Positions 16,837 through 59,425 of a stretch of DNA of 64,000 nucleotides are shown piece by piece. Numbering within the stretch: position 1 is the first letter of the stretch; every line of letters begins with the position of its first letter. Source of the DNA: Strigamia acuminata (Eukaryota). The DNA lies in the NCBI GenBank assembly GCA_949358305.1, contig OX442314.1, positions 62,001 to 126,000 of the forward strand, in the 5' to 3' direction. The notes below the pieces were generated by a model. That model was given only the letters and a program-made list of their open reading frames with translations. It had not been told where the DNA came from and did no database searches. The position numbers and the translations under genes were made by a program.

Positions 16837-17050
16837 TGTTATGTTTTGATTGCAAATTAATGAATAAGCTTTATGACGTACAATGTAATTAGTTAGAACA
16901 ATATACCATGGTTACCTATTGTGTGTAAGGTAGCCATGGTAACAGTATTCTGGAATCAGTCATGTGTGAACTATGAATAAATGAGGGAGTTTCGTGTACA
17001 CTCTTTCCCATTCCAATTTGAGAGTCTAAATCGTTGGTGAGAACCCTTCA
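16837..17050 (+). repeat. 5' LTR of element A
   Basis: TGTTATG...CCTTCA, AATAAA near 16976, followed by G-TGG. Inverted copy at 21298-21511. Confidence 0.8.
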
Positions 17051-20000: not shown

Positions 20001-20641
20001 CGGTCCGTCAGCCGCGCCGAGAGCAATTATGCGCAGATAGATAAAGAGGCGCTGTCGGTTGTATTCGCGGTGAGAAAGTTCCACATTTACCTTATGGATA
20101 GGAAATTTACGATATACACCGACCATAAGCCCTTGCTGGGCATCTTGGGGTCTGACTGGCCGATCCCCTTGGTGGTCAGCCCCAGGATGCTCCGCTGGGC
20201 CTTGCTTTTATCGGCATATTCATATGTGTTGCGGTATCGCAGGGGGACGGACAATTCTAATGCTGATGTCCTGAGTAGGTTCCCTTGCGACCCGGCGCCG
20301 GCTGAGGTGGATGACCGACCCGTGTTTTTGGTGGAAATGGAGGGCAAGAATTTGTTAACAGCGGTGGAAGTCGCGAAGGCGACGTTGGTGGATGTGGAAC
20401 TGATGGTGGTGGTCGCCGCGGTTCGGTTGGGAAGCCCTGCCTCGCTCATGGGGCACCCTGAATTGGCGGTGTTTGTGAGTCGTTTTGAGGAGCTATCTTT
20501 GATGGCAGGAGTCCTCTTGTGGGGGGCTCGAGTAGTAATACCGGGTGCTTTGCAGACTAGGATGCTGCGGCTGCTTCATGAAGGCCATCCTGGCATCGTG
20601 GCCATGAAAAAGAGGGCCCGCAGTGCTATGTGGTGGGCGGG
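16837..20641 (+). mobile_element. Gypsy element A (Mag-like), 3'-truncated
   Basis: 214-bp 5' LTR (TG...CA, 16837-17050), PBS-like TGGTATCCACG at 17052, single gag-pol ORF. Breaks off in the integrase zinc finger at WWAG; no 3' LTR. Confidence 0.9.
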
Positions 20642-20666
20642 GTTCCGAGATGTATTTTTCAATTGA
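17166..20666 (+). CDS. gag-pol: Gag-Pol polyprotein of element A, truncated in integrase
   Basis: Zinc knuckle CFWCGGLHFVKDC, protease LDTGS, RT LDLRQAY/YLDD, RNase H DAS...EAL...TDHKPL, integrase start LHEGHPG. Likely true start is ATG 17370 (MAQV). The last codons come from the inversion junction. Confidence 0.9.
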   Translation: MMKSVSASRRSGGVLDCFLWRAACEPLAASFGRELERFWRREKRQGHAIEHGTSNVRFIGWCSFLLLVMAQVMLGGIPPFSGSTLHEWTSWKQTYQQFVLLNKVEADRQVPLLLTVIDIPMFDKIKRWAHPKDVVTMGLDVILEVVDDHYKSVDTPYMARQRFGARKRHEAESIEKYISELRILSQRCGFATKEETDGAIVHQVVRGSRNEVLVREILLNMPLTAAEVTKRAVAHEMAHIAATGREEPLPFSDEESAKATSSAAVLQLSSGGRRGVQRGRGRAGQFGSPSTPAPGTSAQRGSYQRPWRGRQGQGSGRGGQPVKRDGTPVDCFWCGGLHFVKDCPFEPALGPRPSQSQGTGGRLVGEWRRKASDQEGACPPTTFPPDVDGGFGGAGAPDEKWRQRNVPINAIQEQDEDYALFHLAGVSGRPPPLIVRAVVNSFSFNLLLDTGSELSVLNAADCNVLLNKRLLSRREIIPTTVKLFAYQRQPIEVLGQVRLVMQMGQVTARVNFVVVGRLGPSLIGRDIVQKFGWHNISAALISGNGRDSAAPADGGGVGLSGQHPSASPVDHVEAASTSAQRAGSLSELLLRYAHVFSECLGTYKGDQVNLILRPDAVPRFYRPRPIPLPLRDAVSSEIDDLISKGVFKPIPFSAWGTPLVTVRKKDGGVRLCGDYRSTVNANLQPDPYPLRRIAELLASIGRARVFSTLDLRQAYLQIPLSEGSAIIAAVNTPKGLMAVTRLPFGTMPSAGIFQRIIISVLDGVPRIFVYLDDILVATWSLPEHLWVLEQIFVRLADRGLHLAREKCLFCQSGLNFLGFAISEKGVKPIASKVEAVLAIPPPVDVKGLRTFLGMVAFYAVFIEHLADKATPLYELLCTDANWVWNQRRQRAFDGIKRALTSAPILTYYDLHRPLVVASDASPYRVGAVLAHVDELEREYPVDFAFRSVSRAESNYAQIDKEALSVVFAVRKFHIYLMDRKFTIYTDHKPLLGILGSDWPIPLVVSPRMLRWALLLSAYSYVLRYRRGTDNSNADVLSRFPCDPAPAEVDDRPVFLVEMEGKNLLTAVEVAKATLVDVELMVVVAAVRLGSPASLMGHPELAVFVSRFEELSLMAGVLLWGARVVIPGALQTRMLRLLHEGHPGIVAMKKRARSAMWWAGFRDVFFN

Positions 20667-22843
20667 CTCGGCCTCGTGTCGCTTCCGTGCCCCAAATCTC
20701 TGCCGTGCCATGTACGGAGTGTCGACCGACTTGTAATGGTTGTCCACCACCTCCAAAATCACATCCAAACCCATCGTCACCACGTCCTTCGGATGCGCCC
20801 ATCGCTTGATTTTGTCGAACATCGGGATGTCGATGACCGTCAAAAGCAACGGCACCTGTCTGTCGGCTTCTACCTTGTTCAACAAGACGAATTGTTGGTA
20901 AGTTTGCTTCCAACTCGTCCACTCGTGCAACGTGGACCCAGAAAATGGAGGAATGCCACCAAGCATTACCTGCGCCATTACAAGGAGCAGAAAACTACAC
21001 CAACCGATAAACCTCACGTTCGATGTCCCGTGTTCGATCGCGTGTCCTTGGCGCTTCTCCCGTCGCCAAAATCGCTCCAACTCACGTCCAAAACTCGCCG
21101 CCAACGGCTCACACGCCGCCCGCCACAAAAAACAGTCCAGGACTCCGCCCGAACGTCGACTCGCCGACACGGACTTCATCAATTGAAAATTGTCGCAAAA
21201 AACTCACAATTAGGTAAATACGCTCTGTATTAGCAATTTCAAACTGCCCAGTCCACTGTCCAAACGTTTTACTTAAACTGTTTATCGTGGATACCACTGA
21301 AGGGTTCTCACCAACGATTTAGACTCTCAAATTGGAATGGGAAAGAGTGTACACGAAACTCCCTCATTTATTCATAGTTCACACATGACTGATTCCAGAA
21401 TACTGTTACCATGGCTACCTTACACACAATAGGTAACCATGGTATATTGTTCTAACTAATTACATTGTACGTCATAAAGCTTATTCATTAATTTGCAATC
21501 AAAACATAACAAGAACCAGCATTTTTTGGTATAAAATACATTTTTTAAAAAAAGAAAGTCTTTTTATGCGCAAAAACAGCATTTTTTGGCATAAAATACA
21601 GCATTTTTTGGCATAAAAAACAGCATTTTTTGACATAAAATACATTTCTTCGCAAAAACAAACGCTTTTTATTCATTAAAATAGCATTCTGAAGGCTTAA
21701 AATATTTTTTCTCATAAAACAAACGCTCTTTATGCGCAAAAACAGCATTTTTTGGCATAAAATACAGCATTTTTTGGCATAAAATACAGCATTTTTTGGC
21801 ATAAAATACAGCATTTTTTGGCATAAAATACAGCATTTTTTGGCATAAAATACAGCATTTTATGGCATAAATTACAGCATTTTTTGGCATAAAATACAGC
21901 ATTTTTTGGCATAAAATACAGCATTTTTTGGCATAAAATACAGCATTTTATGGCATAAAATACAGCATTTTATGGCATAAAAGACAGCATTATTTGGCAT
22001 AAAATACAGCATTTTTTGGCATAAAATACAGCATTTTTTGGCATAAAATACAGCATTTTTTGGCATAAAAAACAGCATTTTTTGGCATAAAATACAGCAT
22101 TTTTTGGCATAAAATACAGCATTTTTTGGCATAAAATACAGCATTTTTTGGCATAAAATACAGCATTTTTTTGCATAAAATACAGCATTTTTTGGCATAA
22201 AATACAGCATTTTTTGGCATAAAAGACAGCATTATTTGGCATAAAATACAGCATTTTTTGGCATAAAATACAGCATTTTTTGGCATAAAATACAGCATTT
22301 TATGGCATAAAATACAGCATTTTTTGGCATAAAATACAGCATTTTTTTGCATAAAATACAGCATTTTTTGGCATAAAATACAGCATTATTTGGCATAAAA
22401 TACAGCATTTTTTGGCATAAAATACAGCATTTTTTGGCATAAAATACAGCATTTTTTGGCATAAAATACAGCATTTTTTGGCATAAAATACAGCATTTTT
22501 TGGCATAAAATACAGCATTTTTTGGCATAAAATACAGCATTTTTTGGCATAAAATACAGCATTTTTTGGCATAAAATACAGCATTTTTTGGCATAAAATA
22601 CAGCATTTTTTGGCATAAAATACAGCATTTTTTGGCATAAAATACAGCATTTTTTGGCATAAAATACAGCATTTTTTGGCATAAAATACAGCATTTTTTG
22701 GCATAAAATACAGCATTTTTTGGCATAAAATACAGCATTTTTTGGCATAAAATACAGCATTTTTTGGCAAAAAATACAGCATTTTTTGGCATAAAATACA
22801 GCATTTTTTGGCATAAAATACAGCATTTTTTGGCATAAAATAC
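20642..22843 (-). repeat. Inverted duplication of the 5' end of element A plus upstream satellite (array 2, minus orientation)
   Basis: 20642-21740 is the reverse complement of about 16608-17706 (coordinates sum to 38348), including the LTR/satellite junction. It continues as minus-strand 22-bp repeats to 22843. Confidence 0.93.
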
Positions 22844-23366
22844 TGTCACGGGTGTCCCTTCCCAATTCTTAATTTTCAATTTATTTTCTACATTTCTTCC
22901 CGATTTAATTTATGCACGCGACCTTGTCGCGGTATTGTTTAACCTCAAACCTCGTTCTCGAGTTGGTGACAATCGATCAGCTGATCACTCGATCAGCTGA
23001 CCGATTGTTATAAATATTGCGTCGTGTCGATATGCCGACACTTCGCGACCGATACCCATTTGGACCACAAGTCAATTTCTTTTCGTATCTATTTTTTCTG
23101 ACCGTGCTCGCTCTAACTCCCACCTTTTTATTCATCCGGTGACATTCGAAGCCCCCATTTGAGCTACCGAATTATCTGGAATTGGTCGATTATTTTCGAT
23201 ATAAAACATTATTCGATAACAAGAATCTAGTTGACAGAATTATTCAACGGAACCGGAGTTCTCGAATGACCGACACCCACGCTGAAGGTCATTTTCACTA
23301 CGGGGATTCCACGAACCTGCGACTGCGCGTTTAACACACGCATTGTTTTGTAACGTCATTGTTACA
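22844..23366 (+). repeat. 5' LTR of element B
   Basis: Direct repeat of 34871-35393; about 8 substitutions counted by eye. Confidence 0.95.
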
Positions 23367-23370
23367 AACT

Positions 23371-23390
23371 TGGCGAGCTAGACAGGATTC
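23371..23390 (+). promoter_or_regulatory. Primer-binding site, probably tRNA-Arg
   Basis: TGGCGAGCTAGACAGGATTC 4 nt after the LTR; the same 20-mer occurs in element C at 54695. Resembles the complement of a tRNA-Arg(ACG) 3' end as I recall it. Confidence 0.75.
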
Positions 23391-23473
23391 CGCTTTATTG
23401 AGGGAACCAGCGAGATAGTTAGTATTTTCATTTTTCGTTAATTATTACAATTTTCTTTTCACGTTATTTCAAA

Positions 23474-25351
23474 ATGGCGTCGCCGTTAGAAGGCAATGGT
23501 ATTCGATATCCAACCCTAGACCCTTTTGACATAAACGAGTTGGAATTGATGGAGGAAATGCGCGATAACAGAAGACAAAGGACAGCGACAACAGTTGTGA
23601 ACGTTACAACTACACCATTGGTAACATTTTCAACTGATATTTTAACATCAGTCGCGAGTCCAATTAATACAATGGTGCAACCAATTGTTTTAAATACAAC
23701 GACGACACGAATGTCACCAATTCAGTCGACTAGTAGTTCGTCGACGTTGCCAGTCGGTAATGGGGATCAAACAAACCCTCAAACATCGTTTTTTGCCGGT
23801 TTGCGCACCGAATTTCAGCAGTTTTTAAGGGATTGCAGGGAAAGCATTCTAACACAGCCTGCTTCACGTTCTCCCGGATCGGTACACTCCGAGGGATACT
23901 CTGCCTCAAAGGATCAACAGAGGGGTGACAGGCGAGCGTCTTCTTTATTTGCAGAACCTTCCACGGGCACAGCTCGAGCGAGCGCAACGTTTCGTCAGAG
24001 ATCAGCATCAACGACCAACCGACGCACAGGTGCGGCAGGAGCCCAAGGAATTCCAGTGGAGGAGTATAAAAGAACTCCATCACTTAAAGACGCGCGGGAT
24101 GATGCGACCAAAGCCAATGAAGAGGTAATGTCATCAATATTATACTCAAAAATGAAGTTCTCCAGACCGGAACCAGCAACTAGAGAACAGTTGTCATTAC
24201 CATCTATGCCAGACGAAGATGACCCGACTGGCCACCGTAGATGGAAAGTGGAAAAAATTCCACACTTTAATCCGGATAGGACAGACTTCGACACGGTAAA
24301 TTCATTTTTGGCAGAACTTTATTCGCACATGTGGCAAGTGGGAGCTCCCGAACGCGATTATTTGAAGGCTTATGCTGCCACCACGCTAAAAGGTCGCGCG
24401 TTAACTTGGTGGACGAATATGAAGCCTAAACCCACAACTTGGAAAGAATTCGAGGCAATCTTCCGACAAACGTATTCAATGAACACTGCGGCAGCAAATA
24501 CCAAATTGAGCCAACGAAAGCAAAGAGGTGGTGAATCTACAACTGCATTCTTGAGTGAAATAGCTCATTATTTGCAAATTGCGGGTTACAGAGATAAAGC
24601 ACTTAAGTGGGAAAAGGCCCAGAACATGCTGCAAACTCAAGTAGTATTATTGATGCGAAATTGGGGAGTTAATAGTCTAGAAAAAGCGATTCGAGTTGGA
24701 AATGATGTAGACAATAGATTACAACTCGACGCGTTGCGAGCGCTCGAATTCAAACAAAGTGGGACATTGGATATGGCCCTCATGCCCCTTCCTCAGGGGT
24801 ATTCCATGCCCACAATGTTAAAGCCCGTGGAAGAAACCAAGGTGGAGAAGCCCAAATATTCTACTTTCTCTAGATCTGGACAGTTTTCGCGACAGCTTTC
24901 CAAACAAATTGCTGCAGTTTTGCTGGCAATGGAAACACAGCCGGAAGAATCCCGACCGTACGGAGCAGATGAAGACTCGGAGAGTAGTGGATATGATCCC
25001 GAGGTGAGTAAACAGGATGTGGCAGCAGCAGCTGTTAAAACGGAGACTAAAGCAGCAGTCGCAAAAAATGAAATAAAAATCGCGACGACAAGACTCGAGG
25101 TCCCACCAAATGTTCCAAAGGATCATGTTTGTTCGACTCGGGTCACCACTTTTGATCCGACACCATCACCACCGGAATCAGTCAAACGCCCGGATCATGC
25201 AACCTGGCGTCGGACAAAAAAGAACCGTTGGTTTATGGTCGAAAAGGACACCTGGCGTCCATTTTGCCTGGTGTGTCATAAACTCTTCGAGCGGTCGGAA
25301 AACTTCCAAGGCCTGCCAGGAAGCGAGGCAACAAAGCCAGGCCAAAAGTAA
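23474..25351 (+). CDS. gag: Gag of element B
   Basis: 625 aa. Capsid-like LKGRALTWW...TWKEFEAIF and MHR-like RKQRGGESTTAFLSE. Clearly homologous to 54841-56757. Confidence 0.88.
   Translation: MASPLEGNGIRYPTLDPFDINELELMEEMRDNRRQRTATTVVNVTTTPLVTFSTDILTSVASPINTMVQPIVLNTTTTRMSPIQSTSSSSTLPVGNGDQTNPQTSFFAGLRTEFQQFLRDCRESILTQPASRSPGSVHSEGYSASKDQQRGDRRASSLFAEPSTGTARASATFRQRSASTTNRRTGAAGAQGIPVEEYKRTPSLKDARDDATKANEEVMSSILYSKMKFSRPEPATREQLSLPSMPDEDDPTGHRRWKVEKIPHFNPDRTDFDTVNSFLAELYSHMWQVGAPERDYLKAYAATTLKGRALTWWTNMKPKPTTWKEFEAIFRQTYSMNTAAANTKLSQRKQRGGESTTAFLSEIAHYLQIAGYRDKALKWEKAQNMLQTQVVLLMRNWGVNSLEKAIRVGNDVDNRLQLDALRALEFKQSGTLDMALMPLPQGYSMPTMLKPVEETKVEKPKYSTFSRSGQFSRQLSKQIAAVLLAMETQPEESRPYGADEDSESSGYDPEVSKQDVAAAAVKTETKAAVAKNEIKIATTRLEVPPNVPKDHVCSTRVTTFDPTPSPPESVKRPDHATWRRTKKNRWFMVEKDTWRPFCLVCHKLFERSENFQGLPGSEATKPGQK
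25297..25343 (+). promoter_or_regulatory. Putative -1 ribosomal frameshift signal of element B
   Basis: G_GAA_AAC in gag phase, 6-nt spacer, then GGCCTG (25310-25315) able to pair with CAGGCC (25338-25343). The pol frame is -1 and open from 25282. Confidence 0.6.
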
Positions 25352-25566
25352 ACACCAATTGCCTCGACTTACCCGAAAACTGTGCAGAAACACGAGAAAG
25401 TACAGCACAATCATCAGCGCCAACATCGACGGGTGGAGGCGCCACTCATAATTCTTTAATTCAAAACAATTCATCAATTGCTCCCAAGGAGCTTAAACTT
25501 CAAGAGAAATCAACTTCAGTTCTTCCGAAATCACCCATCATCACACTTCAACCGGAAAAATCCAAG

Positions 25567-28500
25567 TTGATCATTCTGCAACCTAAAAATCAGGACAAAG
25601 TGGTAAGTAAGATCATCACTAATGACTTTATTAACACTATTTCCAGGATTAGCGTCGCGACACTGCCTCCATCTGGCTCGATCACCCAAATGGATGCGAA
25701 GTTTGTGATGTTATCACCTGCAGAGCTAGTTGAAACGCGGGAGCCCATAATTGAGATCACCAAACGCGATAGATTTAAAGCTGATGCGCCATGTGTAAGA
25801 ATTGCGTGGTCGGATATCTCTTTCGTCGCGATTTTCGATTCTGGAGCCCAAACCTGCATAATGTCGAACAAATTATTTAACCAACTTAAGGAGAAAATGG
25901 AACTGCAAATGATGCCTTTAAATGAATTTGTCAGGACTGCAACAAATGATACTGTCAAGGTGACAGGTTCTGTACAGCTCGCAGTGAGAGGACCTCTCGC
26001 AATTATTAAATTCGTTTGCCTTGTTGTACCCGAAACATCTCAAGATTTGCTTTTGGGACGCGATTTTTGCCGTGCAGTAGGCCTATGCACGTTGCATGGT
26101 CGACAACAATGGTATTTAGAGGGATCCGAAGAGCGACGTAAGTTTTTGACAATTGACGAAGCATCAAGATCAGAACCAGTGCTATTGCTACCAATTGATA
26201 GAAAATATAGTAATGAACCCAAAATAGACACATTACCTGTCCCTACATCAAAAATCAATTGTGTTCTGCTTGACCATCGTCCACTTACACGAGAAGTGTT
26301 TGAATATCCAAACGACGATGCTCAATTTCGAGTAAAGAAAATCAAACATCGCGATTCTAACGAGTGGTCGAATATTTGGTCACCCAAACGACAGGAAAGA
26401 TCCACCTCATATTCGCGACGGGCGTCTGGTTTTCAGTTACAACCATCATTTAGTCAAATTCAACGTTGGAAGCGACAATCTAAACGTATTGCCAAAGTTA
26501 AACCAATTGTTCAACAGTTGAATCAACAAGCATCGCGACTTTTGAAAGAAGATATTCTTAAGGAAGCGGAAAGGCAGAAGATTGAACATCAAGATAAAGG
26601 TGACAGTATTGGACATATTAATCAATGTAATTTTTTATCTTATCAGCCAAATAAGGATCCAACATGCCTGGATTGGATTTACCATCAACTGTGGAATCAA
26701 CTGACGGTTCCACAAATCCAGCTTCTCATCAAAACACTCCGACCAGTTGCAAATGTTTTTCGAGAAGAGGTCGGACTCTGCAATAATACAGAGTTTGAAG
26801 TCAATTTAAAGCCAGGATTTCGACCTATCCATGTGCCAGTGCGACCCGTAAATCCAGCCAAGAAGTTGGTAATCGATAAATACATTGATGAAAAATTGAA
26901 ACAAGGAATAATTAGGCGATCCAAAAGCGATTGTGCCGTGGCACCAGTTGTGGTACCAAAAAAGACGAGTGACTGGAGAACTGCTATGGATTTTCGCCCA
27001 ATTAACGCTCAAACAATTCCTGATGTGTACCCATTACCAGACATTGACAACATTTTCGCGTATCTCGGTGGAGCCCATTGGTTTTCGATTATTGATGGTC
27101 GCGAAGCTTTTCATCAAATGGGAGTACGAAAAGGCGATGAAAGGTATTTAGCGTTTATTACTCACCGTGGACTTTTTGAGTACGTGAGAATGCCATTTGG
27201 GCCCATTAATGGACCAGCGACGTTACAACGCGCGATGAACAAAACTCTCGCGAAACATTTGTACAAATTTGTGTTTGTGTATTTGGATGACGTGATTGTA
27301 TTCAGCAAAACATACGAGGAAAATGTTGAACATTTAAAAATCATACTTGGTGAACTCTATGACGCTGGATTTACAATGAACGCGGATAAAACAGAGTTGT
27401 GTCGTCGACGTCTAGAAGTTTTGGGACATATCGTTGAAGCAGGTCAAATTACTCCAAACCCAAAAAAGGTAACAGCGATCCAAAGTTACCCTGCACCAAC
27501 AAATCTTCGCGAATTACAAAGATTTAAGGGAATGGTGGGATACTACCAAACTTTTATTCCTAACTTTGCAAAAATTTGCGAAGTATTTCGTCCACTTTTA
27601 AAGAAAGATTGTACATGGGTTTGGACTGACGCGCATCAAAGTGCTTTTGAACATTTGAAACGATTTGTCGCCGAACCAACTTTAAAGCGTAATTTTCCAA
27701 ATTGGAGTAAACCATTTATTCTACAAACTGACGCAAGTTATTCTGGTCTTGGGGCAGCTTTAATGCAAATTGATAATGAAGGAAATCGTTATCCAGTCGC
27801 ATTTGCATCGCGAGCATTAAACAGTGCCGAAAAAAATTATCCAGTCACTGAGATTGAATGTCTTGCAGCTGTTTGGGCGGTGAAAAGATTTAGACCTTAC
27901 CTGGAAATGATGGATTTCTACTTAGAGAGTGATCATATGTCACTCAAATGGCTATTTCAACAACGCGAACCACGAGGTAGACTGGCAAGATGGGTTTTAT
28001 CCCTTAGTGAATATCGTTTCACGTTCATCTACATTTCCGGATGTAAAAATCGAGTCGCAGATGCATTAAGTCGTGCTCCTGTCGACCCTCCAGAAGAAGA
28101 AGATGAGGACGACAGTCCCCTTGTAGATGATGCATGCTATCTTGCATTTTTTGACGATATTTCAGACTGGCCAGAATTAAGAGTCATAGAGGATTTGATA
28201 AATGAACCTCAGTTCGCATATTGTAAGTTAAGAAATAATTTTCATAATAATAGAAGACATTTAATTTCAGCCTTGACACCAACCAAATCAACGAAGAAGA
28301 AAAAACCACCAAAACAAATGGTGTCATTAAAACGACCGGTGGGACGGCCGCGAAAGGATCCTACAGTTCCAACTTTTTCACCGCGATCTCGTCGTGCAAT
28401 TTCAACTAGAACTAGAGCACGAATTCAAGACCCAACGCTGATTCCACCTACACCAGCTCCACCAACGCCATCAATTGGAAAACGTCTAGTGGGTCGACCA

Positions 28501-30716
28501 CGGAAGAGAAGAGCTATGGATCCAGTCGCTGCAGATACGTCACCAAAAACACGACGTTTAATTCCGCCTACAACTCCAGGAGCTGCACCCGTAAGGCGAC
28601 CAGTGGGAAGGCCTAAAAAACAATTAGTAATACCACCACAAATTCCACCAATCGCGATGCCGGTGCCACCACAAATTATTGTGGCTCCACCAACTCCTCC
28701 AACTCCATTAATTCCTTTAACCCCAACTCCGTTAATTCCCCCTCTTCCAGTCAGCATACCTCCATCACTGCCATCAATACCGGAGGAAGATGTACCAAAA
28801 CGTCCACCAGGGCGTCCAAAAAAACGCAAAACTGGAATTCCGGAGCCAATTGTGCCATCACCAAGGTTGAGAAGACTTACGGCACCTGTGTTACCACCTG
28901 AAGAGGTGCCATTTAAGCGTCGAGTTGGTAGACCACGTAAAACGCAGTCTGGTATTCCAATACCAATTGGAAAGCCAAAACCAATTTTGAAACCAACTTC
29001 TTCCCAAATTTATACACCATCACCACCAATGTCTCCAATTTCTTCACCCATTAGTCCCCATCCATTCTCAAAACCTTTTATAGATCCAGAAGAACCTCAA
29101 GCTGGACCATCGGGTTACAGGCCAGAACCATCTTATGCTGCGACGGACAGTTCGGAATCATCCTCAGATGAAAGCTACGGGCCAAATTTGGGCACACAGA
29201 CGCCCGAAACAGTTTATTTTCGTCCTTCTTTGGATCCCAGAAGGACTCCTAGACCACGTCGCAGACCACGACGGAACTACGATGAGGACGAGGGTGACGA
29301 GCCACCAAACGAAGTGGAGAGACAAGCGGAGTTGGATCACGACCCACCAGTAGATCATCCAGCATTTGAAGTTCTACCTAGTGCAGCAGAAATCATCGCA
29401 GCACAGCAGGACGATCAAGATTCGCGAGAACTGGTGGAGTATTTAACTTTACACACACTTCCGGATGAACCGGAACGTGCTAATTTCATTTTACGTAATT
29501 CTAATGATTTTGGCATGTCAAAAGGGTTACTTTGTCGTTTTCCACCTGTGGACATAAATAAGTTTCACAAAGGTCGCCAAATTTATTTACCCACAATTGC
29601 CCTTCGCGAACGATATTTTCGCGCTTTACATTATCCGCCAATTGGGGGACACATGGGAATTGAAAAAACTTTACAAAGATTAAAATCTAGAGTATACTGG
29701 CCGAAAATGCGAGAAGATGTGCAGACCTGGATATTGGTTTGTGACGCATGTCAACGAGCAAAACCTTTAAATCGCTTGCCATATGGTAAACTGCTCATGT
29801 CAAAACCGCAACATTTATTTTCAGCCATTTATATAGACTATTACGGTAAGAAACCTCGCTCGACAGGCGGAAATTGCTATACATTCGTAATGGTAGATGC
29901 AGCAAGCAGATGGTTGGACGTGAGACTTACCGAAAACGCGAACATTCCTACTACTATTAGACAGATTGTTAAAATTTGTAAAAGATGGGGGTTCCCGAAA
30001 GTCATAATAAGTGACAACGCACCAACATTCAGGTCCCCCGAATTTCAAAATCAATGTCAGCAATTAGGAGCGGTGAACAGATATACAGCAGTATATCATC
30101 CGCAGAGTAATTTAGCCGAAAGGTTAAATCAATCGCTAAAAAATTGCATTTTAGCCTACATTGATGACCATTCAAGGTGGGACATCCACATAGGATATTT
30201 TGTTCTCGCGATAAATTCAGCATACCAAGTGTCGTTAAAATTCTCTCCCTTTAAAATGGTCATTGGCCAGGAGGCCAGATTTCCCGGAGATCTAGAGAGC
30301 GATTCGGATGATGGCGAGCCTTTACCGCCATCAGAAGCGGAGAATTTACACGCTGCGAAAATCAGGCACAAAAGATGGTTTGATCGCGGTAGAAGGCCCC
30401 ATGATTTTAAACCAGGAGACTGGGTAACTTTAAAAAATCGCCAACAATCATCTGCTGATCGCCAATTTGCCGCTGGTTTGAGACAGCGAACTGAAGGAAT
30501 TCATATTATACACAAGTTGGTGGGACCAAATACTGTAATATTAATGGATAATGAAAGGAGCAAATCACCCCCATACAATGTGATTGAATTAAGACACTGG
30601 CATTTTGATGATGCTGAAGCACCAACAGTCGAAGAAATTAATTTGATTGATTTACACGTTGACAAATTCATCTTATCAACTTTTGACATTTTTACAGCGC
30701 ACATAGTTACTTCTAA

Positions 30717-30723
<7 letters not shown>
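25567..30723 (+). CDS. pol: Pol of element B (PR-RT-RNase H-AT-hook-like linker-integrase)
   Basis: FDSGA, YLDD, TDAS...ECLA...SDH, HHCC (LHYPPIGGH...CDAC), catalytic IDYY/SDNA/AERLN. The frame is open from 25282 and overlaps gag. Confidence 0.95.

Positions 30724-30760
<37 letters not shown>
30722..30760 (+). repeat. A39 tract starting in the pol stop codon
   Basis: TAA followed by an uninterrupted A run. Confidence 0.9.
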
Positions 30761-30761
<1 letters not shown>

Positions 30762-31511
30762 GAATGTAACCATGCGGTGTTAGATTGTGGTAACTTTATG
30801 TGATATTGTTTATTTCTTGCATTATAGAAAATTGCATTTTTTATAATTTGAAGTTTGGTTGTTTTCATTTCATTTCGTTCGTTCGTCTTTGTTCGTTTGA
30901 TTTGTTTACTAATTAAATGTTCCCTATGATGTTTGTCAATGTCTGTGTTGCATTGTGGTATTTGTAAAAAGTTAAACCATCTACTCTGAGGTTTATAGTA
31001 ATTATTTTTGTCACTAGGTGACGTTGATATTTTAGCCTCGCACAGGGCACATGCAATTCAGAAAACGGATAAATGTCGCGAGACTTAATTTTAATAATCA
31101 AATGAATTTTTAATTTTTTTTCTATTCATAACTAAAGACATGCGCATTATTTTTAAGGAAATTTGGTTAAGAATTAAACCTTTTGGGGGATTAAGCTACT
31201 GGTTTATGCCTGGCAACAGATATGATTACTCAGCACTCTTCAAACTGACCAATCCTAGAGCGCTAGCCTCTAAGGCCATGCGTCTTTTATTTCGCGCATG
31301 CCGGTACTTGATTTTCAACACGCGGTTAGTCTAGCGGACATTTCATCTAATTTATCATGTCGTGTGTCGAGTGCCGTATTTTGTTTTGTCCATTGTAGCA
31401 TATCGAATTATGTGAGTACTAATTAAGTGTTTTTCATTGTTGTCAGTTCAATAGCTAATTTTATTTTGTTCTCTAAAAAGACCATATAGTTTATCGCGAA
31501 TTTTCTCAAAC

Positions 31512-33965
31512 ATGTCGAACAGCAAACTCCAAAATGGCGACGAAAAACAAAGGAAGTTAAAATATCCGAAGAATTTGCCCATTCCACCAATTAGAGCGAA
31601 AGGAGAATGGATATACCCTCACTTCCACCCCGACGAGCCTCTCGAACAATCTTTCCTGAACTTCGAAGTTTGTCCTATATGCTCGGGCTGGGGTGTTGAG
31701 ACCACACCACCGGTTAAAGAAATTGTTTGTCGCGCATGTGAAGGAGCAGGAGAACTCAGGAGATGTAAATTTCGGGAGTGGATGCGCATCTACTTTAATT
31801 GGGTGTTCCACTTCAAATATGCAGACGGGGTGAGGATATACGAATGGATTTTGCCGCCAACACGAATAATTCAGGGGAGCATCACCGCGCTTCTAAGATT
31901 TCGCTTTACACACTATTGGTATTGGGCCAGGGTGCAGCAACTGGCCGAAGAGCGTGGTGTAGCGCCGCGGCGATGGATTTATCCGATGGGAAACGCGATC
32001 CGATGCCAACATGAGGCAGTGCCGCGTATGAGCAACGAGGACATCGCGAAATTATCTAATTTTGCCAGAGAGCAATATCTTACCGACCTACAATACTCAG
32101 GCATGATTAAAACTCTCCCTGCATTTCTAGGAACAACTGCCAACTCCGAGCAGGCGAGATTATGGATCGAAGATTTAAATCGCGAAATCGACCTCCTCAC
32201 GGCCGAAGCCAGAGCCCAGCCGATGCCTGAACCTCGTTTATATATGCCCAAAGGTACTGAAAGTTTCGCGGTCCGATACAAGGAGAGTGGTGGCCAGGTA
32301 GTCCAAGCTATCATGGCAGGCGGTACTACGTTGCCGAGAGACCGCTCTCGTGACCATCAATTCACACCAGGAATGGTGTATGCACCGAAGCCTTTACAAA
32401 TTGCGCAAGCGACCACACCAGTCGAGGAAGAGGAAGAAGTGACAAAACACGATGAGTCGACGTCATTGCCGTCCGAATCTAATAAGGAAATCAGCCCTGA
32501 CAGAATGAGACCTGGAATGCTGTCAAAAATGGTAAATTTTCCGCGACCTATCAAATCAGTCCCAATTTTGACTCCAATACCGGACCCCACACAACGTCGC
32601 CTGGACGAGTTCATGGAAAGAAACAGAGACATTAGATCACTACCACCCAGTATTGAAAAGAAAAATGAAGAATCGGCACCGGCTAAATGCGAATTGAAGC
32701 CAACTGCGACAGAACTTCATATGAAGAGGGTTCCGACTCCATTCAAGAGTCAGATTCCAATCAAATCAACATCAATCCCAACCAAGACGACTACTACAAC
32801 AGTCAACACCACAGCCACGACGAGCGTGATGGCAACAACCAATACCGTAGCGGCACAGGCTTCTACGACACGCAGCTCGCCTCAAGATGGTGTCCTGTCA
32901 ACAACCAAAACCACAAAGGTAATCACTCCTCCTCCTCATTATACTCAAACCGATCATTACGGAGTATCTGACTGCCCCACCTTCACTCTTCATTATATTC
33001 GAAACATTTTGAAACCCTTCGAGCTTCAGGTTCTGAGGAGAAGCGCTACCATCAGCAACTCCCGTATGGAGTTGGAGCCGAAGGGTTGGAGGGAACTTTT
33101 TACCGTGATGTCGAGTCGAGATTTTGACATCAATCAATACGATGTCTACCCAGTAAAAAATGCGACATTCAAAGAGCTGAAGAACATCGCCGCCAGTGTT
33201 GAAGCTCGTATGGACCAAGAGATCCACATGGATGAGGATCGTCTATTCGCTGTACTGGTATGGGAAACGCATCGGGTAATGGGCATGTATGTTAAAAAAT
33301 TCGCGATTGAACGGGAAAAGAAGAAATATGCGGTGCAGGAAAGTTTGAGGAGGGAAGCTGAAAAAGTGGCGGCAGAGAAAATCGAATTCGAAAGAATAGA
33401 AAAAGCCCGAAAGGAAAAAGAGGATAAAGAGAAAGAGGAAATTCAGAAAAGAAGAGAAGAGGAGAAAAGGGTTCGAGAGATTCAAGTCCAAGAGATGTCA
33501 AAACTTGCCGTCTCTTCGCGATTTATGGCGCCCACTCCTGAGGAAAAATCCTTGAAAGACGTACTTTCTCTCCCAGTTTCCAAGGAAAAACCGGAGATAA
33601 CCATTTTAATGTCCAACGCAATAATTCCGACGATGAACATTATCTGCGATTTTACTTTCAATCCAACAAAGTGTGTGAAACTAATGATCCCTTATCACAC
33701 ACAGAGTGCCCTTTTCCGATCATTGGCATTGTCGGATTTAAATTTAACCATTCCCGAGACCGAAGAAGTTATTGAACTAATGGACACATATTTTCGCGAT
33801 GCATTTATCGACCTATGCTTGCAGGAAATTAATCGCCGTGGAGCCGCAAATGTGGCCAGAGCCCGTTTAATTATCATAGATGTGGCGTTTGATTTGATTC
33901 GACATTACTCGGACCCGGAACAACGCCTTATCGTTAAAGAATTCCACAAGGACTTGACGTCGTAA
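31512..33965 (+). CDS. ORF3 of element B, 817 aa, unknown function, not env-like
   Basis: Long ATG-initiated open frame between pol and the 3' LTR. Motifs CPICSGWG and CRACEGAG, a Thr/Pro-rich middle and an E/K/R-rich coiled-coil-like stretch. No evident signal peptide or membrane anchor. Confidence 0.85.
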   Translation: MSNSKLQNGDEKQRKLKYPKNLPIPPIRAKGEWIYPHFHPDEPLEQSFLNFEVCPICSGWGVETTPPVKEIVCRACEGAGELRRCKFREWMRIYFNWVFHFKYADGVRIYEWILPPTRIIQGSITALLRFRFTHYWYWARVQQLAEERGVAPRRWIYPMGNAIRCQHEAVPRMSNEDIAKLSNFAREQYLTDLQYSGMIKTLPAFLGTTANSEQARLWIEDLNREIDLLTAEARAQPMPEPRLYMPKGTESFAVRYKESGGQVVQAIMAGGTTLPRDRSRDHQFTPGMVYAPKPLQIAQATTPVEEEEEVTKHDESTSLPSESNKEISPDRMRPGMLSKMVNFPRPIKSVPILTPIPDPTQRRLDEFMERNRDIRSLPPSIEKKNEESAPAKCELKPTATELHMKRVPTPFKSQIPIKSTSIPTKTTTTTVNTTATTSVMATTNTVAAQASTTRSSPQDGVLSTTKTTKVITPPPHYTQTDHYGVSDCPTFTLHYIRNILKPFELQVLRRSATISNSRMELEPKGWRELFTVMSSRDFDINQYDVYPVKNATFKELKNIAASVEARMDQEIHMDEDRLFAVLVWETHRVMGMYVKKFAIEREKKKYAVQESLRREAEKVAAEKIEFERIEKARKEKEDKEKEEIQKRREEEKRVREIQVQEMSKLAVSSRFMAPTPEEKSLKDVLSLPVSKEKPEITILMSNAIIPTMNIICDFTFNPTKCVKLMIPYHTQSALFRSLALSDLNLTIPETEEVIELMDTYFRDAFIDLCLQEINRRGAANVARARLIIIDVAFDLIRHYSDPEQRLIVKEFHKDLTS

Positions 33966-34870
33966 GTTTTCATTTTGCCGGATGGTGTCGAGAAGGGTAA
34001 CCCTCGATCAGGCCGCCAGTGCAACCATTCGGCGGGATGAAAATCTTTCCACAGTGATTTGTGTAAATGTGCAGTGCTGTGATTTTTATTTTCGCGAAGA
34101 ACTTTATTTACTCTTTTCTATTTTCCGTTATTTAAATTGTGTAAATCTGTCCTGTCTTCTTTTCCTTCGTTGTTCTATTCTTCATTCGCGACAATTCATG
34201 ATATAAAAATATTGTGAACATTTAGCATCACCATGGTGACGAACTTCATGTGAAATTAAAAAACTGTTTTATTTCCATTGGACATTAGTGGTACTGAAAT
34301 GGTACAAAATGAAAAAATTCGCGAAACCATCGCGATCTTCTGATGTGGACTCACATTTTCGAATTATCAAATCATCATTTTATATGTTCATCACAAGTGT
34401 TTTATTTTTATTTTAAGTGTCCAATGATAGTGTTCCTTTATTAAGATTGAAAATTTTGAATATTTTAATTCAGTATAACTAATTGTTTTATTTTCAGACT
34501 TTTATTTCAAGTGATATCATTCTTTTATACTTACCATTTTGCCGATACGAGTAGTGTCGATGATCCAAAGCTGTGATAATTGTTTTACTTTACCTTTTTT
34601 GATGCCAAAGTGTTTTCTAGTGTTCGTTTATGATTCCGCGGGATATCTCGCGAAGTAATTTTATTTTCATTGTTTCATTTCATGCTTAATTCGCGATAAA
34701 TCATCGCCACCGTTTTATTCTTATTGATTTTATTAGTTATAATCATTGCTTTTAAGTACCATGGTACCATTGTTAATTTTTGAAATCGTTTATGTTCACA
34801 TTTATATTGCGATCCTTTGGATCACCCTACCTTTTGTTTACATTGTAATAAAAGTCTGGGTGGCGGAGGA

Positions 34871-35393
34871 TGTCACGGATGTCCCTTCCCAATTCTTAAT
34901 TTTCAATTTATTTTCTACATTTCTTCCCGATTTAATTTATGCACGCAACCTTGTCGCGGTATTGTTTAACCTCAAACCCCGTTCTCGAGTTGGTGACAAT
35001 CGATCAGCTGATCACTCGATCAGCTGACCGATTGTTATAAATATCGCGTCGTGTCGATATGCCGACACTTCGCGACCGATACCCATTTGGACCACAAGTC
35101 AATTTATTTTCGTATCTATTTTTTCTGACCGTGCTCGCTCTAACTCCCACCTTTTTATTCATCCGGTGACATTCGAAGCCCCCATTTGAGCTACCGAATT
35201 ATCTGGAATTGGTCGATTATTTTCGATATAAAACATTATTCGATAACAAGAATCTAGTTGACAGAATTATTCAACGGAACCGGAGTTCTCGAATGACCGA
35301 CACCCACGCTGAAGGTCATTTTTACTACGGGGATTCCACGAACCTGCGACTGCGCGTTTAACACACGTTTTGTTTTGTAACGTCATTGTTACA
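34871..35393 (+). repeat. 3' LTR of element B
   Basis: Preceded by PPT-like GGGTGGCGGAGGA; direct repeat of 22844-23366. Confidence 0.95.
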
Positions 35394-38300
35394 GTATTTT
35401 ATGCCAAAAAATGCTGTATTTTATGCCAAAAAATGCTGTATTTTATGCCAAAAAATGCTGTATTTTATGCCAAAAAATGCTGTATTTTATGCCAAAAAAT
35501 GCTGTATTTTATGCCAAAAAATGCTGTATTTTATGCCAAAAAATGCTGTATTTTATGCCAAAAAATGCTGTATTTTATGCCAAAAAATGCTGTATTTTAT
35601 GCCAAAAAATGCTGTATTTTATGCCAAAAAATGCTGTATTTTATGCCAAAAAATGCTGTATTTTATGCCAAAAAATGCTGTATTTTATGCCAAAAAATGC
35701 TGTATTTTATGCCAAAAAATGCTGTTTTTGCGCATAAAAAGAATTTGTTTTTTGAAGAAATGTATTTTATACCAAAAAATGCTGTTTCGGTGCATTAAAA
35801 GCGTTTGTTTTTATGAGAAAAAATATTTTCTGCCTTCAAAATGCTGTTTTGGCGGATAAAAAGCGTTTGTTTTAATGAGAGAAAATATTTTATGCCTCCA
35901 GAATGCTATTTTGATGAATAAAAAGAGTTTGTTTTTGCGAATAAATGTATTTTATGTCAAAAAATGCTGTTTTTGCGCATAAAAAGACTTTGTTTTTTGA
36001 AGAAATGTATTTTATACTAAAAAATGCTGTTTCGGTGCATTTAAAGCGTTTGTTTTTATGAGAAAAAATATTTTAAGCTCTCAGTGCCCTCAGAGCCCTC
36101 AGAGCCCTCAGAGCCCTCAGAGCCCTCAGAGCCCTCAGAGCCCTCAGAGCCCTCAGAGCCCTCAGAGCCCTCAGAGCCCTCAGAGCTTTCAGAGCCCTCA
36201 GAGCCCTCAGAGCTCTCAGAGCCCTCACACCTCTCAGAGCCTTCAGAGCCCTCAGAGCCTTCAGAGCTCTTAGAGCCCTCACACTTCTCAGAGCCCTCAG
36301 AGCCCTCAGAGCCTTCAGAGCTCTCAGTGCCCTTAGAGCCCTCAGAGCCCTCAGAGCCCTCAGAGCCCTCAGAGCCCTCAGAGCCCTCAGTCCGCTCAGA
36401 GCTTTCAGAGCCCTCAAAGCCCTCAGAGCCCTCAGACTCAGAGCCCTCAGAGCCCTCAGAGCCCTCAGAGCTCTCAGAGCCCTCACACCTCTCAGAGCCT
36501 TCAGAGCCCTCAGAGCCTTCAGAGCTCTTAGAGCCCTCACACTTCTCAGAGCCCTCAGAGCCCTCAGAGCCTTCAGAGCCCTCAGAGCCCTCAGAGCCCT
36601 CAGATCCCTCAGAGCCCTCAGAGTCCTCAGAGCTCTCAGAGCCCTCAGACTCAGAGCCCTCAGAGCCCTCAGAGCCCTCAGAGCCCTCAGAGCCCTCAGA
36701 GCCCTCAGACTCAGAGTCCTCAGAGCCCTCAGTCCGCTCAGAGCTTTCAGAGCCCTCAAAGCCCTCAGAGCCCTCAGACTCAGAGCCCTCAGAGCCCTCA
36801 GAGCTTTCAGACTCAGAGCCCTTAGACTCAGAGCCCTCAGACTCAGAGCCCTCAGAAGTCTCAGAGCCCTCAGAAGTCTCAGAGCCCTCAGAAGTCTCAG
36901 AGCCCTCAGAGCCCTCAGAGCCCTCAGAGCCTCAAAAAACGCTGTATTTTATGCCAAAAAATGCTGTATTTTATGCCAAAAAATGCTGTATTTTATGTCA
37001 AAAAATGCTGTATTTTATGCCAAAAAATGCTGTATTTTATGCCAAAAAATGCTGTATTTTATGGGAAAAAATGCTGTATTTTATGCAAAAAAATGCTGTA
37101 TTTTATGCAAAAAAATGCTATATTTTATGCCAAAAAATGCTGTATTTTATGCCAAAAAATGCTGTATTTTATGCCAAAAATGCTGTATTTTATGCAAAAA
37201 AATGCTGTATTTTATGCAAAAAATGCTGTATTTTATGCCAAAAAATACTGTTTTTGTGCATAATAAGACTTTGTTTTTTGAAGAAATGTATTTTATACCA
37301 AAAAATGCTGTTTCGGTGCATTAAAAGCGTTTGTTTTTATGAGAAAAAATATTTTAAGCTCTCAGTGCCCTCAGAGCCCTCAGAGCCCTCAGAGCCCTCA
37401 GAGCTCTCAGAGCCCTCAGAGCCCTCAGAGCCCTCAGAGCCCTCAGAGCCCTCAGAGCCCTCAGAGCCCTCAGAGCCCTCAGAGCCCTCAGAGCTTTCAG
37501 AGCCCTCAGAGCCCTCAGAGCTCTCAGAGCCCTCACACCTCTCAGAGCTTTCAGAGCCCTCAGAGCCCTCAGAGCCTTCAGAGCTCTCAGTGCCCTCAGA
37601 GCCCTCAGAGCCCTCAGAGCCCTCAGAGTCCTCAGAGCCCTCAGAGTCCTCAGAGCCCTCAGAGCCCTCAGACTCAGAGCCCTCAGAGCCCTCAGAGCCC
37701 TCAGAGCCCTCAGAGCCCTCAGAGCCCTCAGAGCCCTCAGAGCCCTCAGAGCTTTCAGAGCCCTCAGAGCCCTCAGAGCTTTCAGAGCCCTCACACCTCT
37801 CAGAGCTTTCACAGCCCTCAGAGCCCTCAGAGCCTTCAGAGCTCTCAGTGCCCTCAGAGCCCTCAGAGCCCTCAGAGCCCTCAGAGCCCTCAGAGCCCTC
37901 AGAGTCCTCAGAGCCCTCAGAGCTCTCAGACTCAGAGCCCTCAGAGCCCTCAGAGCCCTCAGAGCCCTCAGAGCCCTCAGAGCCCTCAGAGCCCTCAGAG
38001 CCCTCAGAGCCCTCAGAGCCCTCAGAGCCCTCAGAGCCCTCAGAGCTTTCAGAGCTTTCAGAGCCCTCAGAGCCCTCAGAGCTCTCAGAGCCCTCACACC
38101 TCTCAGAGCTTTCAGAGCCCTCAGAGCCCTCAGAGCCTTCAGAGCTCTCAGTGCCCTCAGAGCCCTCAGAGCCCTCAGAGCCCTCAGAGCCCTCAGAGCC
38201 CTCAGAGTCCTCAGAGCCCTCAGAGCTCTCAGACTCAGAGCCCTCAGAGCTCTCAGAGCCTTCAGAGCTCTCAGTGCCCTCAGAGCCCTCAGAGCCCTCA

Positions 38301-39059
38301 GAGCCCTCAGAGCCCTCAGAGCCCTCAGAGTCCTCAGAGCCCTCAGAGCTCTCAGACTCAGAGCCCTCAGAGCCCTCAGAGCCCTCAGAGCCCTCAGAGC
38401 CCTCAGAGCCCTCAGAGCCCTCAGAGCCCTCAGAGCCCTCAGAGCCCTCAGACTCAGAGTCCTCAGAGCCCTCAGTCCGCTCAGAGCCCTCAGAGCCCTC
38501 AGAGCCCTCAGAGCCTCAAAAAACGCTGTATTTTATGCCAAAAAATGCTGTATTTTATGCCAAAAAATGCTGTATTTTATGGAAAAAAATGCTGTATTTT
38601 ATGGAAAAAAATGCTGTATTTTATGCCAAAAAATGCTGTTTTATGCCAAAAAATGCTGTTTTATGCCAAAAAATGCTGTATTTTATGCCAAAAAATGCTG
38701 TATTTTATGCCAAAAAATGCTGTATTTTATGCCAAAAAATGCTGTATTTTATGCCAAAAAATGCTGTATTTTATGCAAAAAAATGCTGTATTTTATGCAA
38801 AAAAAATGCTGTATTTTATGCAAAAAAATGCTGTATTTTATGCCAAAAAATGCTGTATTTTATGCAAAAAAATGCTGTATTTTATGCCAAAAAATACTGT
38901 TTTTGCACATAAAAAGACTTTGTTTTTTGAAGAAATGTATTTTATACCAAAAAATGCTGTTTCGGTGCATTAAAAGCGTTTGTTTTTATGAGAAAAAATA
39001 TTTTAAGCTCTCAGTGCCCTCAGAGCCCTCAGAGCCTTCAGAGCCCTCAGAAGTCTCAG

Positions 39060-43716: not shown

Positions 43717-45154
43717 TGAGTGGTCAACATCCGTCGGCGAGCCCAGTGGATCATGTGGAAGCGGCGAGCACGAGCGCACAGAGAGCTGGTTCCCTTAGCG
43801 AGTTGTTGTTGCGTTATGCGCATGTTTTCAGTGAGTGTCTCGGTACCTATAAGGGAGACCCAGTCAACCTTATTTTAAGGCCTGACGCGGTCCCCAGGTT
43901 TTACAGGCCCAGGCCGATCCCGCTGCCCTTGAGAGATGCGGTCAGTTCCGAAATCGATGATTTGATTAGTAAGGGGGTGTTTAAGCCAATCCCGTTTTCC
44001 GCATGGGGGACCCCCCTCGTCACAGTTCGCAAGAAAGATGGGGGGGTTCGCCTGTGTGGCGATTACAGGTCCACCGTCAACGCAAACCTGCAGCCAGACC
44101 CTTATCCTTTACGCCGCATTGCTGAGCTTTTAGCCTCCATCGGGAGGGCGCGAGTGTTCAGTACGCTTGACCTTAGGCAAGCGTATTTGCAAATCCCGTT
44201 GTCCGAGGGGTCGGCCATTATAGCGGCCGTCAACACGCCCAAGGGCCTGATGGCCGTTACGAGGCTCCCGTTCGGGACCATGCCTTCTGCAGGCATATTT
44301 CAGCGCATTATCATCTCGGTCTTGGACGGGGTGCCTCGTATTTTTGTGTACTTGGACGACATTCTTATGGCAACTTGGAGTTTGCCGGAGCATTTGTGGG
44401 TTTTAGAGCAAATTTTTGTCAGGTTGGCTGATAGGGGATTACATCTGGCCAGGGAGAAGTGCTTATTTTGTCAGAGTGGGCTAAATTTTTTAGGGTTTGC
44501 GATTAGTGAGAAGGAAGTGAAACCCATCGCGTCAAAAGTGGAAGCGGTGTTGGCAATCCCACCTCCGGTGGATGTGAAGGGCCTCAGAACCTTTTTGGGA
44601 ATGGTGGCTTTTTATGCCGTGTTCATTGAGCACTTGGCTGATAAGGCGACGCCACTGTATGAACTTCTGTGCACTGACGCAAATTGGGTTTGGAACCAGC
44701 GTAGGCAGAGGGCGTTTGATGGGATCAAGCGGGCTTTGACCTCCGCTCCAATTTTGACATACTACGACCTCCACCGTCCGTTGGTGGTCGCATCAGACGC
44801 GTCCCCTTACGGGGTTGGAGCCGTCCTTGCCCACGTGGATGAGTTAGAGAGAGAATACCCGGTCGATTTTGCTTTCCGGTCCGTCAGCCGCGCCGAGAGC
44901 AATTATGCGCAGATAGATAAGGAGGCGCTGTCGGTTGTATTCGCGGTGAGAAAGTTCCACATTTACCTTATGGATAGGAAATTTACGATATACACCGACC
45001 ATAAGCCCTTGCTGGGCATCTTGGGGTCTGACTGGCCGATCCCCTTGGTGGTCAGCCCCAGGATGCTCCGCTGGGCCTTGCTTTTATCGGCATATTCATA
45101 TGTGTTGCGGTATCGCAGGGGGACGGACAATTCTAATGCTGATGTCCTGAGTAG
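43717..45154 (+). pseudogene. pol: Internal RT-RNase H fragment of Gypsy family A
   Basis: Near-identical to 18841-20278, with a few substitutions (DQV/DPV, LVA/LMA, KGV/KEV, PYRV/PYGV). No LTR or TSD. Confidence 0.92.
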
Positions 45155-58808: not shown

Positions 58809-59425
58809 AGGTGCGTTCAATTCCAAATGGTTTTCCCCGTTTTCGTCGTTTTCCTCGTTTTTGCTGTTTTCCAACACGGGATGTAGACGCATTTGACGTC
58901 ACATTTCGAAAATCGGTTTTTTCGAAAACCGATTTCCTGAAAACTAGAAATTCGTGGTTTTCGTGGTTTTTCAAATCGTTTTCCCCCGGGCCGCCATTTT
59001 GTAATCGAATAGATCGGCGGTGGAAGCACACACAAAAATGTAGGTTTAATGTTTTAATATTGCAAATTCAATTTGTATAATTATTAGGCCTTTAAGAACG
59101 ATCGAATGCGCCCAAATTTCGGGTGCATGTGCGCGATCAAATGCGGCCAATTTTCGGGCGCATTTGCGCGATCGAATGCGGCCAATTTTAGGCTAATTTC
59201 CCGCTCCCAAATGAATAACAATAATACTATCAATTTAAACAAACTTACATTACTATTAAATTAAATATATTTAAATACATTTACAGACTGAGCATGCTCC
59301 GTGGCTGTTGAAAGCTGTTGACAGCTGTTGGTAATAATGCTGCTCAATGTTGAAAACCGTTTTCATCGTTTTCGGAAAACGACGAAAAACGGTTTTTGAA
59401 AGCCATTTTAGAATTGAATGCACCT
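58809..59425. mobile_element. MITE, 617 bp, PIF/Harbinger-like
   Basis: TIR AGGTGCGTTCAATTC/GAATTGAATGCACCT (1 mismatch), 3-bp TSD ATT. The 620-bp gain accounts for the pol frame change. Confidence 0.85.

Follow-up and report, generated by a model that had tools for sequence, protein, structure and literature searches.

Extra genes that do not encode an envelope protein (Env) are already known as a kind in long terminal repeat (LTR) retrotransposons, namely CERV of Cer1, those of rotifer Juno and Vesta and the additional open reading frames (ORFs) of plant elements. To our knowledge, very few of them have a tested role, and CERV is the clear case. According to the sections of the report dealing with it, the env-position ORF of Cer1, a Ty3/gypsy element of Caenorhabditis elegans, encodes no Env and lacks homologues beyond Caenorhabditis; CERV is part of a spliced mRNA, the first exons of which are in the gag frame, and is needed for export of the genomic RNA (PMC10309623). 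For LTR elements of bdelloid rotifers, the relevant passages describe non-envelope ORF3s that are a GDSL esterase and a DEDDy exonuclease (PMC5408684), and the Envs of metazoan Gypsy elements are, in the part of the source concerned with them, of F-type or gB-type (PMC13524379). Here we describe ORF3, an 817-residue reading frame in a complete Ty3/gypsy element (22844-35393, 12,550 bp, with LTRs, gag, pol and polypurine tract). The element lies in a 64,000-nucleotide stretch of Strigamia acuminata DNA (contig OX442314.1, positions 62,001 to 126,000), which is called the window below and supplies all coordinates. We give an even chance to the reading that ORF3 is a kept, lineage-restricted, non-envelope accessory gene, likely captured and CERV-like in kind.

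A first-pass annotation, made from the letters of this DNA, had proposed an intact 817-aa ORF in the env position of a Gypsy element, and both parts of this proposal held. The Pfam domains of pol follow each other in the order protease (PR), reverse transcriptase (RT), RNase H and integrase (IN) between two LTRs, gag and pol are intact too, and ORF3 lies between the pol stop codon (30723) and the polypurine tract (34858-34870), which places it in the aORF-3S class of sense additional ORFs (PMC7264820). Its stop-to-stop frame starts at 31455. The probability of such an open frame, calculated from base composition, is ~1.4e-20, and each of the other five frames contains 24-48 stops. With codon log-odds scores learnt on gag and pol, frame 0 ranked top in each of the eight 300-nt blocks; the codon pattern of ORF3 fits a coding sequence over its full length. 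The same scores were below zero in every frame of both AT-rich spacers, and the non-coding flanks of about 0.8 and 0.9 kb described earlier were found again as 788 and 905 nt, neither with an ORF of coding-like codon score. A transposon nested around ORF3 was ruled out, because a repeat search revealed neither terminal inverted nor long direct repeats bracketing it.

In the protein libraries searched, ORF3 is an orphan. The whole protein matched no Pfam family at the thresholds applied, and no relative was obtained by a word-indexed search of 5.8 billion clustered proteins (near and shorter lengths), by an exhaustive phmmer search of 1.84 billion representatives, in the ESM Atlas (whole ORF3 and residues 1-290) or among viral and metagenome contigs. 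The sequences of the PDB yielded only composition-type matches on the charged helix of ORF3 (V-ATPase subunit G, E=0.05) and no match to residues 1-290 at E up to 10. At 21 metagenome loci the integrase part had relatives, all with only 22-38% identity; these loci held no ORF3 relative at E up to 1, and the sole C..C.G.G among them was one match in a 31-aa frame. As the best matches of the RT-RNase H part in the 5.8-billion-cluster collection are only 36-44% identical, the pol lineage, and probably the host too, is poorly sampled. No confident match to a known Env or a described accessory ORF emerged from these libraries. Single-sequence AlphaFold2 models of the whole protein and of residues 1-290 had a mean predicted local distance difference test score (pLDDT) of 38.8 and 37.0, respectively, and were unusable.

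The codon usage of ORF3 is unlike that of its neighbours. The GC content at third codon positions is 0.476 in ORF3, 0.314 in pol and 0.416 in gag, and the relative synonymous codon usage of ORF3 correlates with that of gag and pol at 0.53-0.65, compared with 0.845 between gag and pol. For this reason, ORF3 was probably captured from outside, an origin also thought to apply to additional ORFs of rotifer elements in the pertinent passages of PMC5408684. Codon usage and the run of 39 adenines (A39) behind pol suit outside acquisition; they do not decide between a recent passenger and an accessory gene that has been kept. The run itself may have arisen by microsatellite growth or may mark a junction left by recombination when ORF3 was acquired. 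Its interpretation as a templated poly(A) tail was dropped, as a motif check found no AATAAA in the 60 nt upstream.

Assembled contigs of four public runs, which carry one species label (the same species), were aligned to the element. Two runs (X1 and X2) contain an exact copy of ORF3, with 30771-34873 represented by one unbranched unitig of 4,135 letters that stops 3 bases inside the 3' LTR. The depth of this unitig (77.6 in X1, 234.3 in X2) is close to that of the exact pol unitigs (87.2 and 90.4 in X1; 229.6, 242.5 and 268.9 in X2), and the copy number of the exact ORF3 therefore equals that of the remaining element and may be one. Diverged contigs were counted at ≥85% identity, with depth determined by bin, five bins lying wholly within ORF3. 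They contributed extra depth to two of these five bins in X1 (32062-32480 and 32900-33318) and clearly to one in X2 (32900-33318, 887.4), where a slight contribution was also seen at 33319-33737 (258.9). Extra depth was found in both runs over the bin that covers the end of ORF3 and the 3' spacer (33738-34156), and diverged contigs also deepen both spacers, in X2 locally well above the exact copy. The third run, without an exact copy, shows faint cover of 31224-32480, and no contig of the fourth run aligned to the element. One diverged contig departs from the alignment at 33272 and remains in frame with ORF3: 7 of 10 residues are identical, and of its 10 base differences, 4 are silent and at third positions. 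Because contigs of the same species hold diverged ORF3 patches, ORF3 is probably not a one-off, and these sequences argue, if thinly, that related elements may carry a related, still coding ORF3.

These copies bear on the alternative that ORF3 is a passenger, i.e. a host gene transduced recently in intronless form, with no role in the element and still open by chance. Its codon usage, unlike gag and pol, would suit such an origin, but no host-type homologue was found among the 1.84 billion representatives, though the host lineage is poorly sampled. Similarly, the long AT-rich flanks resemble untranslated regions and the A39 run is positioned exactly at the post-pol junction, yet no poly(A) tract is present 3' of ORF3 and no AATAAA ahead of A39. 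A single unbranched unitig, as deep as the pol unitigs that belong to it, represents the exact copy, as would be expected of a passenger, whereas other contigs from this species contain diverged patches of ORF3 and both spacers, some of them deeper than the exact copy. At 1.5% LTR divergence, we estimate that luck could keep such an ORF open since insertion; the retention of the frame with silent changes in one diverged contig speaks against a passenger. Taken together, we consider a passenger unlikely, though a serious contender.

The N-terminal part of ORF3 contains a pair of CxxCxGxG motifs, CPICSGWG at residues 54-61 (31671-31694) and CRACEGAG at residues 73-80 (31728-31751), separated by 11 residues as reported before. 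Among 20,000 shuffled versions of the protein, 4 had at least one C..C.G.G and 0 had two, and the pair is therefore not a chance occurrence. Its assignment to the DnaJ type stood only in part: the motifs are real and the best Pfam match is the central domain of DnaJ (DnaJ_CXXCXGXG, top match of a 60-aa piece with E=0.006 and 17.2 bits; 14.2 bits for residues 1-290), but the score is well below the family cut-off of 32.7 bits. Further down the weak Pfam list for the 60-aa piece, and far under their cut-offs, stand Anti-TRAP (PF15777) and BSD2_CRD (PF25436), families which also bear a motif of the CxxCxGxG kind. The cysteine-rich domain of DnaJ possesses four CxxCxGxG repeats, which form two zinc centres. 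ORF3 has two repeats, and the remaining 7 of its 11 cysteines are scattered; by analogy, the four cysteines of the pair would bind one zinc ion, like one DnaJ zinc centre. In the open-access literature searched, no paper was found that links CxxCxGxG or a DnaJ motif to a retrotransposon ORF3; two of the matches concern plant ORANGE proteins.

This resemblance raises the question whether ORF3 is a much-diverged captured co-chaperone, the zinc hairpin of which holds clients or steers host Hsp70 for the benefit of the element. The best Pfam match of the motif pair would be explained in this way, although only two of the four DnaJ repeats are present and the bit score remains far from the cut-off. 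An HPD tripeptide was identified at residues 39-41 (31626-31634), 12 residues ahead of the first CxxCxGxG. It may be there by chance, and the gap between HPD and the first cysteine is too short for the later helices of a J-domain. No J-domain profile matched residues 1-75 or 1-290 at E up to 10, Pfam detected no DnaJ C-terminal domains in ORF3, and the PDB search with residues 1-290 was empty. A DnaJ-derived cargo is thus improbable.

The regional composition of the remaining protein agreed with the first-pass annotation. Of the 56 residues at positions 86-141, 16 are Phe, Tyr or Trp, which confirms the aromatic-rich segment; the Thr/Pro-rich linker (residues 291-500) consists of 16% Thr, 12% Pro and 9% Ser, and the charged region (residues 601-690) of 22% Glu, 17% Lys and 11% Arg. 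In the model, the linker is almost without secondary structure, with one short helix at residues 359-370, and the charged helix has a pLDDT of 72-89 in 10-residue blocks around residues 611-660, the only part of the model above 70. A PPHY motif of the PPxY type in the linker (residues 474-477, 32931-32942) may be due to chance. We infer a layout in which an N-terminal zinc-binding and helical part is followed by a Thr/Pro linker that is disordered, then by a long Glu/Lys/Arg helix and a helical C-terminus. No enzyme signature was found in ORF3, and this layout of probable zinc hairpin, linker, rigid helix and helical C-terminus suggests an adaptor rather than an enzyme.

The orphan status and the unusable structure models would also fit a dead frame, formerly coding or open by chance and without a present product. 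Such a frame should hardly have the open-frame probability reported above or score best in frame 0 in all eight blocks, and this copy also has an intact gag and pol, so that we regard this alternative as very doubtful.

The claim that ORF3 is not an Env was borne out. Signal peptide and membrane segment were judged by the Kyte-Doolittle scale and not by a dedicated predictor; the maximum over all 19-residue windows is 1.44 and the N-terminus is hydrophilic, which agrees with the earlier statement that neither signal peptide nor anchor is visible. A motif search revealed no furin-type R-x-K/R-R site in ORF3, the 817 residues hold 11 cysteines and 3 sequons, and no glycoprotein family of Pfam and no solved glycoprotein among the PDB sequences was matched. 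As signal peptide, membrane segment and furin-type site are absent, ORF3 does not encode an Env. A cell-entry protein of degenerate or novel type is consequently disfavoured and highly improbable, even though ORF3 shares position and sense orientation with env and AG sites after pyrimidine runs lie upstream, as in spliced env mRNAs.

The 788-nt spacer holds 17 ATGs, none of them between 31447 and the ORF3 ATG. Scanning ribosomes on full-length RNA would therefore miss ORF3, and a subgenomic RNA, either spliced or started internally, would be needed. The pyrimidine-rich AG sites pointed out previously are located at 31445/6 (13 of 20 pyrimidines) and 31479/80 (14 of 20); further AG sites after pyrimidine-rich runs are 31397/8 and 31453/4, the latter being the end of the in-frame stop that precedes ORF3. 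The only donor-like site in the ATG-free leader is weak (ATA/GTTAGT at 23418), and the best donor-like site, a near-consensus GAG/GTGAGT, is found at 25004 directly after gag codon 510. Expression of the ORF3 protein would thus require a subgenomic RNA, probably a spliced one, and these candidate sites allow two routes. An env-style splice might connect the leader (23418) with 31445/6 or 31479/80. Alternatively, a splice from 25004 to 31453/4 might join gag and ORF3 in frame, a frame match expected by chance in one of three cases.

The product of ORF3 is likely a soluble, non-envelope, zinc-binding scaffold protein, which, by analogy to CERV of Cer1, may work intracellularly on the RNA or particles of its own element. 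A more detailed proposal is that ORF3 represents an undescribed accessory family of large nuclear or cytoplasmic adaptors. In such a protein, a single DnaJ-style Zn(Cys)4 hairpin would grip a partner, and the linker and rigid helix would hold it apart from the second helical domain. The protein would be expressed from spliced RNA, possibly as a fusion of Gag(1-510) with ORF3, and the element would depend on it to handle its RNA or assemble particles. We advance this proposal as a tentative one, and in its full detail it is rather unlikely.

Several observations weigh against ORF3 as a kept accessory gene of this nature. Codon usage suits an accessory gene no better than a recent passenger, and the exact copy, a single unbranched unitig, fits one copy or very few. 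As no homologue was found, conservation rests on patchy contig depth and one stretch of 10 residues. The DnaJ-type match is far under the Pfam cut-off, and since the AlphaFold models are unusable, the domain layout was read off the composition and weakly called secondary structure. The splice sites were assigned by consensus match only, and the 25004 donor falls into a gap of the alignment with the gag of a second Gypsy element in the window (element C, see below), so that it is not conserved there.

The features of the element are compiled in the table. The two LTRs are 98.47% alike (8 mismatches in 523 positions, blastn of the two flanks). A tRNA scan detected no tRNA genes in the window, and hence no match partner for the stretch that resembles a primer-binding site; an Rfam scan of the window gave no matches either.

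Features of the Gypsy element and of ORF3 (window coordinates)
Feature	Position	Strand	Remarks
5' LTR	22844..23366	+	523 bp; TGT...ACA ends; blastn against the 3' LTR
Putative primer-binding site	23371..23388	+	TGG start; 4 nt past the 5' LTR
gag, 625 aa	23474..25351	+	ORF; Pfam Retrotrans_gag, E=5.7e-08
pol	25282..30723	+	PR-RT-RNase H-Pro-rich linker-IN; Pfam and frame limits
A39 run	30722..30760	+	merges into the pol stop codon; public contigs break here
AT-rich 5' spacer, 788 nt, GC 0.32	30724..31511	+	between pol and ORF3
ORF3, 817 aa, orphan non-envelope protein	31512..33965	+	ATG to stop
CPICSGWG-x11-CRACEGAG, predicted single Zn(Cys)4 hairpin	31671..31751	+	sequence
Thr/Pro/Ser-rich linker, residues 291-500, probably disordered	32382..33011	+	composition; model
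Long Glu/Lys/Arg-rich alpha-helix, residues 575-664	33234..33503	+	DSSP helix in the model
AT-rich 3' spacer, 905 nt, GC 0.33	33966..34870	+	ends in the polypurine tract
Polypurine tract	34858..34870	+	directly ahead of the 3' LTR
3' LTR	34871..35393	+	523 bp; TGT...ACA ends

A search for the pattern C-x2-C-x3-5-H-x3-5-C revealed no CCHC zinc knuckle in gag. A conserved W-R-P-x-C-x-V-C stretch is present at the end of both gags, at 25247-25270 in this element and at 56668-56691 in element C, and might represent a variant, or what is left, of a motif for nucleic-acid binding. The pol frame is -1 relative to gag, opens 70 nt ahead of the gag stop and has its first ATG at 25690; judged by its sequence, this overlap is the usual layout for a frameshift. 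The Pfam domains matched in pol are, in order, Asp_protease_2 (aspartyl protease), RVT_1, RT_RNaseH, Integrase_H2C2 and rve. The Pro-rich linker between RNase H and integrase contains five AT-hook-like GRP[RK]K motifs (28335-28940, pol residues 882-1085); the linker of element C is shorter and has one such motif (PKLGRPKGS). These motifs may aim integration at AT-rich satellite DNA, which is the setting of the element itself, and for the idea of chromatin targeting, raised earlier for ORF3, they would be the better candidate.

The window consists mostly of satellite arrays of 22 bp and 9 bp with embedded Gypsy fragments. No direct target-site duplication was found at the ends of the element. 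The DNA abutting the LTRs (21513-22843 and 35394-36030) is 22-bp satellite in opposite orientations, the first 23 bases being exact reverse complements, and these inverted flanks suggest an inversion, or a recombination between two copies, after insertion. They fit a later rearrangement within this satellite region, which is rich in inverted segments. Element C (55342-64000) is 40% identical to the focal element in gag and 48-65% in pol. It is rearranged: 56365-58831 is repeated at 61534-64000 (99.96%), and its integrase is cut at about residue 1423 and fused to the end of a gag. No part 3' of the integrase of element C lies within the window, and nothing else in the window resembles 30724-34870. 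An inverted duplication of 98.96% (15781-17710 and 20638-22567) surrounds another Gypsy fragment, a direct duplicate of which is found 25 kb away (99.4%, 18841-20278 and 43717-45154). Recent rearrangements make this region a patchwork. The satellites (36045-38973 and other blocks) open long frames in several frames, e.g. 36951-38912 with 653 aa and SEPSEP repeats; these were rejected as genes, being artefacts of the repeat periodicity.

As read from the DNA, the finding stands as a novelty at the level of annotation. In an intact element, an 817-residue orphan that probably has a zinc site would add another independent acquisition to those known, and ORF3 offers a tractable case for a cargo role, be it in RNA export, assembly, chaperone use or counter-silencing. 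It further indicates that heterochromatic elements embedded in satellites can harbour large, well-structured coding frames which escape all current protein libraries.

Compared with known systems, ORF3 has the genomic position in common with Env of the errantivirus type (F-type or gB-type, PMC13524379), and not the signal peptide, anchor, cleavage site or glycoprotein homology. With the DnaJ domain PF00684, Anti-TRAP and BSD2_CRD it shares the CxxCxGxG motif, which occurs twice with a spacing that permits one four-cysteine zinc centre, whereas PF00684 has four repeats, and ORF3 lacks J-domain and DnaJ C-terminal domains. The rotifer ORF3s (PMC5408684) and the sense additional ORFs of plants (PMC7264820) are alike in being an extra sense ORF in the env slot. 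To judge from the relevant passages of both sources, they were gained independently of gag and pol and are family-specific, as ORF3 probably is too (PMC5408684, PMC7264820); the rotifer proteins are recognisable enzymes there, unlike ORF3 with neither enzyme signature nor family match. CERV, as portrayed in the sections devoted to it, differs in its 517 aa, its leucine zipper, nuclear localisation signal and nuclear export signal, and a zinc motif is not mentioned in those sections (PMC10309623). ORF3 in turn has its own ATG, and the two are likened by description. On the described features, both are non-Env proteins with homologues only in a narrow range of hosts and with helical or zipper-like parts. 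A splice between the candidate sites 25004 and 31453/4 would, moreover, mirror the first exons of CERV in the gag frame, as far as these are set out in that account.

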